Positions 58,671-64,000 of a stretch of DNA of 64,000 nt are shown piece by piece; position 1 is the first letter of the stretch; every line of letters begins with the position of its first letter. The DNA lies in the NCBI GenBank assembly GCA_000165345.1, contig CM000431.1:864001-928000 (forward strand), given 5' to 3'. The notes beneath the pieces were generated by a model. It worked only from the letters and a program-made list of their open reading frames with translations, did no database searches and was not told the origin of the DNA. A program made the position numbers and the translations under genes.

Positions 58671-60260
58671 TTAAAAATTTTTTAGTTCGTTTGGTATTGG
58701 ATTATTTGAAGTTAAAAGGATTTTTTTGAGCTCAGGAAATAATCCCGAATCTTCAGGTGTTATAAATGAAATAGCAATACCATTTTTCCCAGCTCTTCCT
58801 GTTCTTCCAATACGGTGAGTATAAGTATCAATCGATTTTGGGAAATCATAATTTATAACAAGGTTAATATTATTAATATCAATACCACGTCCAGCAACAT
58901 CGGTAGATACAAGAATGTCAAATACTCCGCTTTTAAACAAATTAAGACTATTTTCTCTAACTTCCTGCATTTTCCCACCATGTAGAGAAGTTGCTTTAAA
59001 ACCATGAGATACAATTTCTCTACATACAATATCTACCATCTTTTTTTGGTTAAGAAAAACAATAATTGGTGGTACTGCCAATTCTTTATTATTTAAAGTA
59101 TTAATTAACGTAGATTTCTTTTTATTTTCACTAATAAAATTGAGTATTTGTTGAATTGATTTTTTTCCTGCTCCAATATCTCCAATAGTAACATTAATTG
59201 GCGAATTAAGATACCTTTTCGCAATGTTTTCAAGCTCTTTCTGCATAGTAGCACTAAACATATGAGTAGTTCTTTGAATCTCTGGCGGTATCTGATCAAG
59301 AATAAAGTTGAGAGAGTCTTGAAATCCTAAATCAATCATTCTATCAGCTTCATCCAAAATAACATATGAACATTGTACTAATACTGTTAATGTTTTTTCA
59401 AGACAATCCTGCATTCTACCTGGAGTTGCAATAATAATCTCCACTCCTTTTCTAAGTGAAAATGCTTGTTGATCAATATTTCTTCCTCCAACAATAGATA
59501 AAGTACGTATTCTTTTTAATTCATGAGTTTTATTTAATAATTTTTGAGCTTCATCTTCAATTTGAAGTGCTAATTCTCTGGCTGGAGCAAGAATAAGTCC
59601 ATATGGTCCTTCTTGACTTGTTTTATAATCAAGTATTGGTTTATTCCCTACATAACTAATAAGTGGAATTAGAAAAGCTATAGTTTTACCACTACCAGTT
59701 TCTGCTATTCCTATCATATCCCTAAGTTTTAATCCAATAGGAATACATTGCATTTGAATTGGAGTTGGCTTTTCATAACCAATATTTCTAATTAACTCTG
59801 TTTGTATTTCTAAAACATGACAATCTTTCCAATTACGTATTGGATTTGGAACATCTTTGCCACGTACATTAATTGAGTAATCTTCTCTAAATATTTTCCA
59901 ATCTCTCTCAGTCATATCAAAATATCCCAAATCTGATTTCTCATCCAAAAATTCATCATTCTTTCCATTACTATCTTCTTTTCTTATTCCTTTCTTTTTC
60001 CTCTCGCTTAACATCTTTTCTATATTTAATCGATTCATATATAATTCATTTGACCCCAATGAAAAAGTATCCTCATTATTGCTCCATTCAAACTGTAGCA
60101 TGCCTCTATGTCTTTTTTTGCTCTTTCCATCTTCAACATTACTACTTATTAAGTCATAATTAACAACATTATCCTTCTCATCCGAATTAGCTTTATTAGC
60201 TAATATTGATTGATCGTTTTCATACCTATCTAACCTCTCTAGTCCCGGAATCTTCAACAT
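58671..60260 (-). CDS. DEAD-box ATP-dependent RNA helicase (Prp28/DDX23-like core), 529 aa
   Basis: Q motif PTPIQMQCIP, motif I AETGSGKTIAFLIP, Ia PARELA, II DEAD (ILDEADRMIDLGF), III SAT, VI HRIGRTGRAG. The N-terminal ~130 aa are charged. The stop codon lies 1 nt from the stop of the convergent upstream gene. Confidence 0.88.
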   Translation of the reverse strand: MLKIPGLERLDRYENDQSILANKANSDEKDNVVNYDLISSNVEDGKSKKRHRGMLQFEWSNNEDTFSLGSNELYMNRLNIEKMLSERKKKGIRKEDSNGKNDEFLDEKSDLGYFDMTERDWKIFREDYSINVRGKDVPNPIRNWKDCHVLEIQTELIRNIGYEKPTPIQMQCIPIGLKLRDMIGIAETGSGKTIAFLIPLISYVGNKPILDYKTSQEGPYGLILAPARELALQIEDEAQKLLNKTHELKRIRTLSIVGGRNIDQQAFSLRKGVEIIIATPGRMQDCLEKTLTVLVQCSYVILDEADRMIDLGFQDSLNFILDQIPPEIQRTTHMFSATMQKELENIAKRYLNSPINVTIGDIGAGKKSIQQILNFISENKKKSTLINTLNNKELAVPPIIVFLNQKKMVDIVCREIVSHGFKATSLHGGKMQEVRENSLNLFKSGVFDILVSTDVAGRGIDINNINLVINYDFPKSIDTYTHRIGRTGRAGKNGIAISFITPEDSGLFPELKKILLTSNNPIPNELKNF

Positions 60261-60353
60261 TATATTTGCATTTCTACTAATTTCTCCCTACTTTTTAATA
60301 ATTAAACAACTCTTATAATTACTAATTATTATAATTCATGCCAAAATACCGCC

Positions 60354-60365
60354 AGCGCCAAAAAC
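60354..60365. promoter_or_regulatory. E2F half-site-like AGCGCCAAAAA about 100 bp upstream of the helicase ATG
   Basis: A GC island in the AT-rich 5' flank. It is an imperfect match to the GGCGCCAAA copies elsewhere. Confidence 0.3.
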
Positions 60366-60934
60366 ATGCACGACCATTATTGATAAATATTAAAAGGTTA
60401 CCAATTTAAAGTAAATATGTAATGAAAAAAAAAAATGTTTTTTTTTGGCGGGAGATTTTGTTAAATATAAAATGCATGGAATAATGCAATTAATGTTAGA
60501 GGTAGAAAATGTTAAAATATTTAAAGATTACGAGAAAGTGAGAGTATGTTGGAGAAAAAAAATAAGGAAAAAAAAATAAAGAAAAGAAGTATAGGAAGAA
60601 GCAAAAGAAAAGAATAATATTTATTTGAGCTTAAGAATGAATAGATCCCGAATATTATTAGGTTTTATTAATTGAAATATAAAAATACGTAGATTTAAAA
60701 CTTTAAAAAATAATTATTATTAGTTTTATTTTTGTAAGAACTATCTTAAGTTAATTACGTTAAATTCAAACAGATTTTCTATTATTCTAACGAGGGTGAA
60801 ATGAAAAATAAAAGTTTAAGTAATTTGCATTCCGCCAATCATTGCTGGATTAAATATTAATAGATTACACAAATTTTTTTTAATTAGTTATAAGTAAATA
60901 ATATTGCTGAATTAAAATTAGCAACAAAATTTTA

Positions 60935-63900
60935 ATGGGAATTTCCCATACATTTATAAACTATATAATCACTTTCTGTTTAATTATATTACTGGAGTTT
61001 ATTTTTTCTATTGATATTTTAGACAGAGAGGATACTTATTGTAATGAGAATAATATATCAGATTTAATTTGTGTACCAGTAAGTATTATTGTTCATTTTT
61101 TTTTCTTTTCTTAAAAAAAAAACTTTATTCATACAAAATTATATACAAAATTCACTCATTATTTTAGAATGATAACATTATTGAACTTATTAATAAAATA
61201 ATTGAAGATTTATCACCAAAATTGCAATTAAAAGAAGAATACCAAGATATAAATACATATTTAGTTTTTAATGAGTTGGAATTTGTTAAAAGCCCATTAT
61301 ACTCTTGTGGTCATCCAAAATCAAAATTAATAGAACTGGATAACATTAAGAAAACATTCTTATGTATGGTAACAGAAGAATTACAAAAAGTTCTACAATG
61401 TAAAAGTGGATATGAATTAACTGAGGTATTAATAGAGAATCCTAGTAAAAAACTTGGATATGGTGAATCTGAAATTAGACCAAGAACTAATAGAGAGAAG
61501 AAATATGCAATAAAAAGTGATAAAATTTGTATTAAAACTGTAAAAGTTCCTGTTGAAATTATATGCAAAGTAAGTTTTCGCTATTTTTAAATGTTGAATT
61601 ATTAATATTTAAAAAAAAAAACAATTTTATATTTTAGGATGGCAAATTTAAAGATGGATTTTGTGTTAAGGAAGAAACAACAAATCCATTATATGAATGC
61701 CCTAAAGGATTACATGTGACTCCAAGAAGATGGTGTGGATATATTAAAAAAGAATTAAATGAAAGTTTAATGGAAAATGTAATTAAAAGAACAAATCCTG
61801 GATGTGTTATTAAAACAGTACATCCATGGTTTAAATCTACAGCTACTGTTGAATGTTATAATAGTAATAATGGTTATATTGTAGGTATTACAGAGGATGA
61901 TTGGGTTAATGTTATACCACCAACAATAAAATGTCCAAGAGATTTTGAAATAATATTCCCAACATATCCAACAGAAGATACAATTAAAGGTAATTTTACT
62001 TTTCCTCCGGTATGTCTTGCTAGAAGATATTTTCCAAGAAGTATAAGTTGTCCAGGAATATTATTAAGAAATGGACTTATAGTAACTGATAGATATATTG
62101 TTGATAACGAATTGAATCCAACTCCATTTAAGCAGAAAATAGATGTTTCACATTATTCTTGTCAGGTACAAAGTAGGGTGAAGCCAAATATAGTTTGTCC
62201 AATAATTAATATGGATTATTACTCAAGATTAAGATATGTTTTCCCAAATAATGAATATTATTTGAATTCACATTTCAATACTGAAGAAGTTATTAATTAT
62301 CAATCGGGACTTTTTGATTTTACAAGTTATTCAAATTTTTTAAATGAGAATCCAAATATTATTAATGAGTTAAAGGAAAATCAGTTAAGTCAATTGAGTA
62401 ATGTTTCTGATACTAATTCCACAATATCCAATAGTTCTATTTCCAATTCCAACTTAAATGACTCAATTGTATCAACATCCAATGATAATGATAATGATAA
62501 TGATAACTCAACTTTGAAATCTAGTCCATATTATAACTATAAGGCCTACAAAAATGAGTTTCATGAATATAAATACTATTATAATGATACTTTAAATAAA
62601 CACTTAAAGTCCATGAATGATTACAATAACCATGAATACTCATATTATCCATTCAGGTTGAATACTACTTTGGATAATCCTTGGAATACAAAAACTAGTA
62701 ATAATATTAGTAACAATTTGAGACGGGAGGATCATAGAAAAGTACATTCAATTCATTCAAAAGGTTCACAAATAGAAAAAGTGGTTGGAGCAAAACAATT
62801 CGATAAAGAATATGATAACTTTCTACAAGGATTAAAAATAGATTTATCAAAACAAAGTGAGTACTTTAATGATTATCAATGGGATTTCTTAAGCAAATTC
62901 TATAGAGTTTATATATCAGATCAATATAAATTTGTATCAAATATTCCAGTTTCTTCTATTTCACATAAAGCATTGACAATAGATGGAGGTTATCAACTGA
63001 ATATTAATTTAGATCCAACTTATCAAAGCTTTGTCAATTATACATTGGAAAATATGAAAATGATGGATTCTGAATTGAAAATTAACAATTTAATGGATAA
63101 TCTGAACGATACAATGATTAATAATAATGATAATGTTACTGATAGTAATAGTAGTAATGATAATAATACCGATAGTAATAATAATAACATTACTGAGATT
63201 AATATGAATATTAATAATCCTCAATTAATAGAAAAGTTATTAATTTTAAATGATACTAATACAACCAATAATCTTAATTTTACAAGAGATCATGAATATA
63301 ATGCTTGGGAAAAATCTGCAAGAATATATTTTATGGATTTAGATTTGATGAAAAAGAATCAAATAATTTATTCGAGTATTAGTAACTATAAACATAAGAG
63401 AAAGTTTCCATTTCTATATTATTATGGAAGACAACCAAGTATTAATAATGATTATGGACATATTAGAAGACCAGCAATTTCTGACCACAAATATAGATAT
63501 GGAAGTCCTGCAGAAGATTATCACAAATACAGTGGAAGACATGAAAATAGCGATTTACTTTATTATATTAACAAACATTTAAATCAGACAAAACCTTATA
63601 GACATTCTCCAGGGCCACAAACTTATCATAATTGTATATCTATAAATGAGACAACTCCAATAATAGAGTGTCCAAATTCAAATATTATTATTCCAAAATG
63701 TTTTATACTTGATATAATATATGGAATTTTTACAGCAAATAGTCAAAAGAATATTAATGATACATTGATTAAAGATATTGACGAAATGAATTTGAATAAT
63801 TCAATTTCTGAAACAAATGGCAATATTCAAGAAGAAGAAAAGAAAAAAAGGGAAGAGAAGAAAAAGAGAGAAGAAGAAGAGAAGATTAAGAAAGAAAAAG

Positions 63901-64000
63901 AAGAGGAAGAAAAAGCTTTTATGGATAATTATATTAATAGTAGACCAATTTCAATTCAAGAAGGATTGAATGATTTGGGAGATTTAGAAGCTATTGAAAG
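60935..64000 (+). CDS. multi-exon secreted cysteine-rich protein, 3'-partial (exons 60935..61078, 61168..61569, 61638..>64000)
   Basis: The ATG at 60935 encodes the signal peptide MGISHTFINYIITFCLIILLEFIFSIDIL. A GTAAGT donor at 61079 and a TTTTAG acceptor ending at 61167 join exon 1 in frame to the listed ORF 61222..61590. That ORF's apparent start is TTG, and its stop lies inside a second intron (donor AAA|GTAAGT at 61570, acceptor TTTTAG ending 61637). Exon 3 then reads open for ~787 codons to the window end. It contains repeated CP.G....C-like Cys motifs (YECPKGLHVTPRRWC, KCPRDF...VCLARR, SCPGILL), Asn/Asp low complexity (NDNDNDN) and a Glu/Lys-rich tail. Confidence 0.65.

Follow-up and report, generated by a model that had tools for sequence, protein, structure and literature searches.

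A spliced Cryptosporidium parvum gene, cgd3_3700, encodes a predicted secreted protein with one oocyst-wall-protein type I-like module

Does the far end of the DNA stretch analysed here (the window, 64,000 nucleotides) carry a spliced gene that no single open reading frame (ORF) displays, and could its product belong to the oocyst wall? The initial annotation, made from the letters and an ORF list, had proposed at this place a hidden multi-exon gene that runs off the edge and encodes a secreted, cysteine-rich candidate surface or wall protein. The oocyst wall gives Cryptosporidium its chlorine resistance and its transmission through water, and wall components beyond COWP1–9 are poorly defined.

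The proposed gene structure was confirmed in the sequence. All exon boundaries hold (Table 1), both introns have GTAAGT donors and TTTTAG acceptors with phases 0/0, and the third exon stays open for the ~2.36 kb to the edge. Joined in this phase, the exons encode 969 aa within the window, with zero stops and 21 Cys; the product begins MGISHTFINYIITFCLIILLEFIFS, and exon 1 carries, besides the signal peptide, the first two conserved cysteines (C36 and C46). Beyond position 64000, the identical public record CP044420.1 supplies the stop, a TAG at window-equivalent 64113–64115 (115 nt past the edge), which gives a product of 1007 aa. This length and the span of 3181 nt equal the annotation at the locus in three C. 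parvum assemblies. Reading through either intron leads to a stop (61112–61114 and 61588–61590), and the 122-aa ORF with a TTG start is therefore exon 2 plus the first part of intron 2, a middle-exon fragment as had been recognised, and was rejected as a gene in its own right. A run of 787 stop-free codons has a chance probability of about 2e-31 at a base composition of 27% GC, which excludes a chance ORF. Antisense ORFs (61311–61568 and elsewhere) were likewise discarded: exon 2 and AT-rich sequence give rise to them incidentally.

The gene is cgd3_3700 on C. parvum chromosome 3. It is already annotated (product "uncharacterized protein") and not new; it was hidden from the bacterial-style ORF track only. 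Its identity follows from the 100% identity of the flanking helicase to C. parvum, from the identity of the window to CP044420.1 (C. parvum chromosome 3) over cgd3_3700, from the order of neighbouring IDs in a proteomics table (cgd3_3690 'U5 snRNP', cgd3_3700, cgd3_3710, cgd3_3740), and from the qPCR primers for cgd3_3700 (Mauzy 2012, PMC3305300), which map to exon 3 at 61888–61911 and 62002–62022. The window contains the gene except its last 115 bases. Upstream, the intergenic region shared by cgd3_3690 and cgd3_3700 is presumed to be a promoter region; an E2F-like TTCCGCC is located at about 60838–60844, ~100 nt before the cgd3_3700 ATG, and C. ubiquitum and C. felis have this motif at a comparable place.

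Table 1. Features of the cgd3_3700 locus in window coordinates
Feature	Position	Strand	Details
Helicase gene cgd3_3690	58671-60260	minus	ORF list; divergently transcribed relative to cgd3_3700
Intergenic region between cgd3_3690 and cgd3_3700	60261..60934	.	ORF list; putative promoter function
Exon 1	60935..61078	+	144 nt, phase 0; residues 1-48; followed by GTAAGT at 61079
Predicted signal peptide	60935..61009	+	residues 1 to about 25; KD19 maximum and orthologue alignment
Cys-containing N-terminal domain	61010..62216 (introns included)	+	residues 26-375; 17 Cys
Intron 1	61079..61167	+	89 nt, GTAAGT...TTTTAG, phase 0
Exon 2	61168..61569	+	402 nt, phase 0; residues 49-182; followed by GTAAGT at 61570
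OWP type I-like cysteine module	61522..61736 (coded 61522-61569 and 61638-61736)	+	residues about 167-215; HMM, hhalign, BLASTP
Intron 2	61570..61637	+	68 nt, GTAAGT...TTTTAG, phase 0; splits the OWP-like module
Exon 3	61638..64000	+	2363 nt to the window end without a stop; residues 183-969; runs on beyond
Variable Asn/Ser-rich low-complexity linker	62217..62531	+	contains the NDNDNDND tract; length varies between species
Conserved Tyr/His-rich C-terminal region	62532..63791	+	residues 481-900; variable Asn-rich insert
Second OWP-like unit	63633..63701	+	residues 848-870, C-x11-CP-x9-C, CISINETTPIIECPNSNIIIPKC
Glu/Lys-rich tract and start of Gly/Leu/Glu-rich C-terminal tail	63792..64000	+	cut by the window end

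Comparison between species and isolates bears the three-exon structure out, together with the match in annotated length and span. Introns occupy the same two positions in C. ubiquitum, C. felis and C. bovis, where each begins with GTAAGT and ends in AG (intron 1: 75, 153 and 86 nt; intron 2: 57, 159 and 58 nt, respectively). Exons are better conserved than introns: identity to C. ubiquitum is 80% in exon 1, 59% in intron 1 (which has a GC content of 16%) and 83% in exon 2, where the differences are distributed 17:5:47 over the codon positions, a third-position bias. Among C. parvum isolates, indels occur only in the two introns and involve single bases (1-nt poly-T at 61096 in intron 1, 1-nt poly-A at 61611 in intron 2). 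When 1.84 billion proteins were searched by profile, with C. meleagridis P0009 and the translated exon 3 as queries, relatives appeared in Cryptosporidium only, including gastric species (C. andersoni and C. muris); as far as sequence searches can tell, the protein is restricted to this genus. Orthologue annotations are too short in C. hominis TU502, chipmunk genotype I and C. ryanae, which we attribute to the spliced gene having been broken up as it is by a bacterial-style ORF track; such tracks fragment spliced apicomplexan genes.

That exon 1 encodes a signal peptide, as had been suggested, is supported by a single strong N-terminal hydrophobic segment (KD19 maximum 2.58, residues 11–29) and by six orthologues, in which this region is hydrophobic and variable in sequence and is followed by the conserved mature end SI(D/E)IL. 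Cleavage probably occurs after the conserved Ser, before IDILDRE. The KD19 scan found no second hydrophobic or transmembrane segment in the protein, the next-best window (IIIPKCFILDIIYGIFTAN) reaching 1.59 and including Lys and Asp. The name 'putative integral membrane protein', carried by the C. felis and C. meleagridis orthologues, was rejected for want of such a segment. A Pfam-A scan found no family at E ≤ 1 except a spurious PDCD7 match in the Glu/Lys-rich tract, and the annotated product of 1007 aa has no recorded Pfam hit; CPW-WPC, EB module and EGF domains were dismissed on the negative Pfam result.

The N-terminal domain is predicted to be strand-rich and disulfide-bonded. Its AF2 model is mediocre (mean pLDDT 58.6), and the best Foldseek match of this model in the PDB has E = 0.56. 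The NDND and EK-rich tracts described in the initial annotation are present, the former as NDNDNDND in the linker and the latter as the Glu/Lys-rich tract from 63792; the Gly/Leu/Glu-rich tail is missing in C. bovis. Residues 481–900 contain 8.8% Tyr and the conserved motifs YYPFRLN, FPFLYYYG and HKYRYGSP; neither Pfam nor the orthologue alignment yielded a known fold or family for them, and the AF2 model of this region is unusable (mean pLDDT 32.8).

Cysteines make up 2.1% of the protein (21 in 1007 aa) and 4.9% of the N-terminal domain, with spacings of 21, 10, 49, 19, 12, 43, 12, 10, 12, 12, 23, 17, 26, 27, 12, 37, 12, 479, 12 and 10. The hallmark of COWPs and other OWPs is a Cys at every 10th–12th residue, in tandem six-Cys type I and/or type II repeats that take up most of the protein (PMC12548878, PMC4514997), and in EnOWP6 and a gregarine OWP the 11/12 alternation is held over 40 Cys. 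The spacing in cgd3_3700 is irregular, with no tandem array, and His-rich type II repeats are absent (His 2.2% overall, no His tracts). Repeated CP.G...C motifs had been reported; true CPxG occurs only twice (CPKG at residue 203, CPGI at 320), the other C-P pairs being at 46 (C-V-P), 281, 369 and 860, but a C-x11-C(P) pair does recur, seven times (114/126, 169/181, 191/203, 203/215, 308/320, 357/369 and 848/860). The pairs 114/126, 308/320 and 357/369 are degenerate relics within the N-terminal domain.

By sequence comparison, residues about 167–215 match an OWP type I repeat, as one segment only. The module reads ICIKTVKVPVEIIC-KDGKFKDGFC-VKEETTNPLYEC-PKGLHVTPRRWC. Our OWP-unit HMM was built from three units of Eimeria and gregarine sequences and not from C. 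parvum COWP1–9, because the collection of COWPs with EnOWP6 as query gave one gregarine protein. It scored the cgd3_3700 protein at 35.9 bits (best domain 25.5 bits, residues 167–211), a value reached by none of 2000 full shuffles (maximum 8.3) and by none of 2000 shuffles with Cys positions kept (maximum 17.6). Orthologues scored 19–33 bits, and among the 62 natural ORFs of the window, scores above 2 bits fell in exons 2 and 3 of cgd3_3700 only. BLASTP against EnOWP6 placed its HSPs on the same residues (E = 2e-5), hhalign aligned 62 columns over the module (E = 1.7e-4, probability 49%), and AF2 predicts no part of the N-terminal domain better than the module (pLDDT about 90). The HMMER profile search of the 1.84 billion proteins returned zero OWPs at E ≤ 0.001; in view of this and of the hhalign probability, the module may be convergent and not homologous. 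The second OWP-like unit, a hairpin at the end of the Tyr/His-rich region, gives a weak HMM match (residues 847–862) and reads CPKGFTLISKC in C. muris. The likeness to apicomplexan wall Cys-repeat proteins, raised in the initial annotation, is real for the one module at about 167–215.

One explanation of this pattern is that cgd3_3700 is a true tenth COWP paralogue, whose N-terminal domain derives in its entirety from a tandem array of type I repeats with expanded loops. The sevenfold C-x11-C(P) pair would agree with such a descent, as would the 'degenerated type I repeats' of the accepted OWPs TgOWP2 and TgOWP4 (PMC4514997). Partial HMM matches beyond the main module fall exactly on the C-x11-C(P) pairs, but they are weak (−3 to +6 bits, against 25.5 bits for the module), and the sparse, irregular cysteines differ from the strict 11/12 alternation of canonical OWPs. 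With His-rich type II repeats lacking and >60% of the protein devoid of OWP likeness, we regard a tenth paralogue as conceivable but doubtful.

Does other evidence place the protein in the wall? In the analysis code of PMC10233709, cgd3_3700-RA stands in one list with cgd6_2090, cgd6_200, cgd4_3090, cgd4_500 and cgd4_670, and according to its methods that paper takes its oocyst-wall and crystalloid-body sets from C. parvum hyperLOPIT data. The C. muris orthologue bears the UniRef name 'Oocyst wall protein', which may have been assigned automatically. Among the co-listed genes, we take cgd6_2090, cgd4_3090, cgd4_500 and cgd4_670 to be COWP1, 6, 7 and 3, respectively. A published source identifies cgd6_200 as COWP8, and, judged by these co-listed COWPs, the list is presumably the oocyst-wall set. 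The list and the C. muris name agree with the earlier proposal of a candidate wall protein. A full-text search of 8 million papers for the ID cgd3_3700 gave no hits, and we found no report of localisation or knockout.

Transcription is late. By qPCR, the transcript is at about zero from 2 to 24 h and rises at 36–72 h (PMC3305300). RNA-seq gave log2 CPM values of about 4.6 in sporozoites, 2.4 at 24 h and 5.1 at 48 h (PMC6877471; the order of the nine columns, sporozoites, 24 h and 48 h, was deduced from the paper's code). As its mRNA is about as abundant in excysted sporozoites as at 48 h, cgd3_3700 could encode a sporozoite secretory or storage protein (of micronemes, dense granules or the crystalloid body) that arises in sporogony and is not part of the wall; disulfide-rich and insoluble, it would co-fractionate with wall material. 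The sporozoite gene-set workbook of Tandel 2019 (PMC6877471, file 8) points the same way: cgd3_3700 occurs there twice, apparently in sporozoite-only and not female-shared sheets, the first assigned from its file position and the second by a guess. So does the absence of the gene from the proteome of an oocyst-wall-enriched fraction, while 85 other cgd3 genes are listed (PMC9508764). TMT mass spectrometry of lysate from excysted oocysts quantified the protein at a low intensity, like that of a splicing helicase, which speaks against a wall component; this lysate holds sporozoites as well as walls (PMC12548878), which again suits a sporozoite protein. The transcript is undetectable at 2–24 h, however, the period in which merozoites, which have the same invasion organelles, are formed (PMC3305300), the sole recognisable module is OWP-like, and PMC10233709 lists the gene with COWPs and not with crystalloid-body genes; a sporozoite protein outside the wall therefore seems unlikely to us. 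A secreted protein of the male gamont or of another late stage, unrelated to the oocyst (acting, e.g., in fertilisation), would accord with the rise at 36–72 h (PMC3305300) and with the absence of cgd3_3700 from the complete first sheet of the sorted female versus asexual differential list, where COWPs belong (PMC6877471), but is highly improbable given that protein and mRNA are present in mature oocysts and sporozoites and that the gene sits with the oocyst-wall set in the code of PMC10233709.

We favour, with some confidence, the reading that cgd3_3700 encodes a late-made, secreted protein of low abundance that serves the oocyst wall or inner matrix as a structural or cross-linking component. 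The gene structure, secretory features, genus restriction, OWP-like module, late transcription and protein in oocysts are directly supported; the wall location and the structural role are what we infer. The protein would be synthesised late, from 36 h, as sexual stages appear, would enter the secretory pathway via the predicted cleaved signal peptide, with no membrane anchor, and would be exported into the forming oocyst to reside at low abundance in its wall or inner matrix. There the Cys module could provide disulfide-stabilised contacts as used by COWPs, and the genus-specific C-terminal half a Cryptosporidium-specific interaction. A bolder version, which we hold to be quite improbable, is that of a hybrid wall protein needed for excystation or transmission, in which a relic OWP module docks to the COWP lattice and the Tyr/His-rich half performs a genus-specific task. 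Examples of such a task would be suture formation, the joining of inner and outer layers, and sporozoite tethering.

New here is a single OWP type I-like module with statistical support, which intron 2 interrupts and which is joined to a conserved domain without known relatives. Since the gene is confined to this genus and conserved across it, and its product is predicted to be secreted and occurs in oocysts, cgd3_3700 is a reasonable candidate for tagging or knockout, and the protein is possibly also a diagnostic antigen.

Like the type I-repeat OWPs (COWP1–9, TgOWP1–7, EnOWP2/6), the protein has a predicted signal peptide and no transmembrane segment, shows a unit C-x2-G-x5-6-C-[VI]-x10-C-P-x-G at about 167–215 and a second hairpin at 848–870, is transcribed late and present in oocysts, and is co-listed with COWPs in a gene set of PMC10233709 said to come from hyperLOPIT. 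Unlike OWPs, with their Cys every 11–12 residues, it spreads its 21 Cys over 1007 aa with no tandem array or His-rich type II repeats, about two thirds of it are unrelated sequence, and neither the profile HMM search nor Pfam ties it to them; unlike COWPs, it is outside the female-enriched gene list (PMC6877471). Irregular Cys distances and two short introns are shared with TgOWP2, TgOWP4 and EnOWP2, accepted OWP relatives with 'degenerated type I repeats' (PMC4514997), whereas these are Cys-dense over their full length (467 aa in EnOWP2) and have orthologues across coccidia, and cgd3_3700 has them in Cryptosporidium only. Its Tyr-rich C-terminal half recalls the Tyr-rich wall-forming-body proteins of Eimeria (GAM56/GAM82) and Toxoplasma, to which the profile search found no sequence similarity, and the AT-rich genome accounts for part of the Tyr enrichment. 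Dityrosine cross-links are reported to be lacking from Cryptosporidium walls. Going by PMC10233709, cgd3_3700 appears to be one of the non-COWP wall candidates of the C. parvum hyperLOPIT study (Guerin et al. 2023).

The three-exon gene that had been read at 60935-64000 in the initial annotation, with GTAAGT/TTTTAG introns and phases 0/0, was found in the sequence exactly as described (see table). Inside the window, its spliced frame runs for 969 aa with 0 stops and 21 Cys, and the probability of 787 stop-free codons at the base composition of the window (27% GC) is ~2e-31. Unspliced reading meets a stop after at most 12 codons in intron 1 and at most 7 in intron 2; the 122-aa TTG 'ORF' that a bacterial-style track shows thus consists of exon 2 and the first part of intron 2 and corresponds, as had been proposed, to the middle exon of a larger gene. 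The stop sought past 64000 is a TAG located 115 nt beyond the window end in CP044420.1 (C. parvum chromosome 3); extension to this point yields a product of 1007 aa, so that span and product length of the model both agree with those now publicly annotated. The short antisense and other-frame ORFs reported within the gene are without support as genes and overlie its conserved coding sequence.

Features of the cgd3_3700 locus (window coordinates) and of its 1007-aa product (residues)
Feature	Position or length	Strand	Remarks
Exon 1	ATG at 60935, 144 nt	+	GTAAGT donor at its end
Intron 1	89 nt	+	GTAAGT...TTTTAG, phase 0
Exon 2	402 nt	+	bounded 3' by second GTAAGT
Intron 2	68 nt	+	GTAAGT...TTTTAG, phase 0
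Exon 3	2363 nt, open up to window edge	+	frame reading
Spurious minus-strand ORFs	61311-61568, 62521-62652, 63038-63224	-	mechanical ORF finder
Spurious other-frame ORFs	63424-63582, 63817-63969	+	mechanical ORF finder
Cys-bearing N-terminal part	residues 26-375		17 conserved Cys
Asn/Ser-rich linker	directly after residues 26-375		variable between species
Tyr/His-rich region	residues 481-900		strongly conserved, 8.8% Tyr
C-terminal end			Glu/Lys-rich tract, then Gly/Leu/Glu-rich tail, last residue Val

The adjoining minus-strand ORF at 58671-60260 matches the C. parvum 'U5 snRNP 100 kD' DEAD-box helicase with 100% identity, and the DNA around this protein was fetched from three chromosome-level C. 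parvum assemblies. CP044420.1 is identical to the window at all 3066 bases of 60935-64000, and 3/3 assemblies carry, exactly at this locus, an annotated gene of ~3181 nt whose product has 1007 aa. The gene is cgd3_3700 ('Uncharacterized protein'), as identified from the gene order of a proteomics table (cgd3_3690 'U5 snRNP', cgd3_3700, cgd3_3710, cgd3_3740 'p-type ATPase 2'), which is that of the locus, and from published qPCR primers, which map within exon 3 (61888-61911 and 62002-62022).

Support for splicing is comparative and comes from orthologous loci in C. ubiquitum, C. bovis and C. felis and from C. parvum assemblies. All three species share the synteny (MINDY, helicase, cgd3_3700 orthologue, then a protein of ~520-545 aa) and both intron positions at codon boundaries, with GTAAGT donors and AG acceptors throughout; intron lengths vary among them (intron 1: 75, 153 and 86 nt; intron 2: 57, 159 and 58 nt). 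Identity to C. ubiquitum is 80-84% in exons and 59-62% in introns, the introns being lower in GC, and exon 2 differences fall at codon positions 1:2:3 in the ratio 17:5:47. The protein across the junctions (...ICVP/NDN... and ...IICK/DGK...) is kept from C. parvum through C. bovis. Among five further C. parvum assemblies compared over 3 kb, indels are confined to introns and to single bases (poly-T of intron 1 at 61096 in L004 and L005; poly-A of intron 2 at 61611 in L001 and L006); no exon indels were found, and exon substitutions amount to one in L003 (62278) and two in L004/L005 (63382, 63821).

Upstream, an E2F-like TTCCGCC/CCCGCC motif lies at ~60838-60844 (context TTTGCATTCCGCCAATCATTGC), ~100 nt 5' of the ATG. 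Similar motifs occur about as far upstream in C. ubiquitum (~110 nt; L007 ~2891) and C. felis (~132 nt; L009 ~2869), and farther off in C. bovis (~211 nt; L008 ~2790). Further GGCGGG and CCGCCAGCGCC sites at 60349-60460 are closer to the divergent helicase gene.

The sole strongly hydrophobic segment of the product is N-terminal (KD19, the 19-residue hydrophobicity score, 2.58). In the orthologues its sequence varies, its hydrophobicity is kept and the conserved mature end SI(D/E)IL(D/E)R(E/D) follows; this bears out the predicted signal peptide of exon 1, the segment behaving as cleaved ones usually do. Two orthologues are named 'putative integral membrane protein'; the second-best window (residues 865-883), with a score of 1.59 and with Lys and Asp among its residues, gives this name no support. 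The linker is expanded by Ser-rich repeats in C. ubiquitum and by a Glu/Gln-rich insert in C. felis; the Tyr/His-rich region is interrupted by a second variable, Asn-rich insert and has three invariant Cys (848, 860, 870) at its end. There are 24 N-x-S/T sequons, and a Pfam scan of the product gave nothing. The C-terminal tail (...GDLEAIESMEDYGNILNELGYFGNIGELQNLEMLENLQGLGQIAV; window-equivalent 64001-64115, L007 6001-6192, L009 6232-6444) is kept in C. parvum, C. meleagridis, C. ubiquitum, C. canis and C. felis; it had no tblastn match in C. bovis and is absent from the annotated C. ryanae and C. muris proteins. Low-complexity tracts at 62480-62510 (SNDNDNDNDNS) and 63130-63200 (Asn-rich) differ in length between close species (SNDNDNDNDNST in C. 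parvum versus SNDNDNST in C. hominis), the inserts of C. ubiquitum, C. felis and C. bovis are very different, and such tracts may serve as microsatellite-like typing sites.

A word-index search with the product returned Cryptosporidium proteins only. A profile of nine orthologues, scored with HMMER against 1.84 billion representative proteins at E <= 0.001, gave six matches, 6/6 from Cryptosporidium and none from outside the genus. One divergent match is C. andersoni cand_009020, which shares a cluster with C. muris CMU_010760; the family thus covers the intestinal and gastric clades of the genus. Several public orthologue annotations are truncated or fragmentary because of the same two introns: P0002 (C. 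hominis TU502) and P0004 (chipmunk genotype I) begin at an internal Met of MENVIKRTNPGC, P0008 (C. ryanae) begins inside exon 3 (MIQQEGVMKNGFC...), and none of the three includes the signal peptide or exons 1-2; P0019 (C. meleagridis cmbei_3003700, partial) is a 182-aa fragment clustering with the exon 2 ORF.

Oocyst wall protein (OWP) references were EnOWP6 and EnOWP2 of Eimeria (supplement of PMC4514997) and one gregarine homologue. A canonical-looking stretch occupies residues 167-215 (ICIKTVKVPVEIIC KDGKFKDGFC VKEETTNPLYEC PKGLHVTPRRWC). BLASTP against EnOWP6 gave Cys-aligned HSPs (E = 2e-5 and 1e-4 for the pair), and hhalign of the family alignment against EnOWP6 and the gregarine protein covered 62 columns (E = 1.7e-4, probability 49%). 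An HMM spanning three OWP units in a row, derived from Eimeria and gregarine proteins only, has its best domain at residues 167-211; it scored 35.9 bits on the real N-terminal domain as a whole and 19-33 bits on orthologues, against maxima of 8.3 bits in 2000 full shuffles and 17.6 bits (mean 1.8, SD 3.5) in 2000 shuffles with every Cys fixed; among 62 natural window ORFs of at least 80 aa, only exons 2 and 3 of cgd3_3700 exceeded 2 bits. Other C-x11-C(P) pairs (114/126, 308/320, 357/369, 848/860) are weak partial matches, the C-terminal one reading CPKGFTLISKC in C. muris. The AF2 model of the N-terminal domain is poor overall, with pLDDT 80-90 only at the module (167-215) and residues ~304-363, and Foldseek of this model against the PDB returned nothing.

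The genes cgd6_2090, cgd4_3090, cgd4_500 and cgd4_670 are presumably COWP1, 6, 7 and 3 (COWP, Cryptosporidium OWP). COWP8 is cgd6_200 (PMC12548878). In part of the analysis code of PMC10233709, cgd3_3700-RA is listed with these five genes, and according to the methods, the gene sets for the oocyst wall and the crystalloid body derive from C. parvum hyperLOPIT data; from the COWPs co-listed and this source, we infer that the portion of code concerned holds the oocyst-wall set, and membership in it would be the most telling published item on the gene. The C. muris orthologue is named 'Oocyst wall protein' in UniRef. By RT-qPCR over 72 h, cgd3_3700 gave essentially no signal at 2-24 h and rose at 36-72 h (PMC3305300). 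TMT mass spectrometry of excysted oocyst lysate quantified the protein at low intensity, and its level was hardly altered by COWP8 knockout (PMC12548878). A full-text literature search did not find the gene ID in the main text of any paper covered.

On balance, we favour a secreted protein of low abundance, stabilised by disulfides, that would belong to the oocyst wall or its inner matrix and be made late in development; its OWP-like module, next to a genus-specific half, would make COWP-type contacts. An unlikely alternative is a sporozoite secretory or storage protein co-fractionating with walls. If the nine RNA-seq columns run in the order sporozoites, 24 h, 48 h, as inferred from the paper's code, log2 CPM is ~4.6, 2.4 and 5.1, respectively (PMC6877471). 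In the sporozoite gene-set workbook of that study the gene appears twice, apparently in sporozoite-only sheets, and it is missing from the list for an oocyst-wall-enriched fraction that includes 85 other cgd3 genes (PMC9508764). A male-stage or other late secreted protein is highly improbable; the genes listed as different between sorted females and asexual parasites do not include cgd3_3700 (PMC6877471).

The gene model, its ID, oocyst detection and the apparent grouping with oocyst-wall genes were already public; the initial annotation was a correct reading of raw sequence, yet no discovery. The statistical demonstration of the OWP-like module and the genus restriction, together with the truncated orthologue annotations observed, are added here as an incremental advance. 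Classification of cgd3_3700 as a true but degenerate paralogue of the COWPs is a separate matter, and we consider it rather doubtful; the module may have arisen by descent from a COWP-like array or by convergence. Of the likeness to Cys-repeat wall proteins initially noted, one module stands; Cys spacing in the product is irregular, so the defining feature of OWP arrays is missing. The reference OWPs keep a strict 11/12 alternation across 40 Cys, whereas for the cgd3_3700 product we conclude on a single genuine module of the OWP type I-like kind, its coding sequence divided by intron 2, together with eroded relics.
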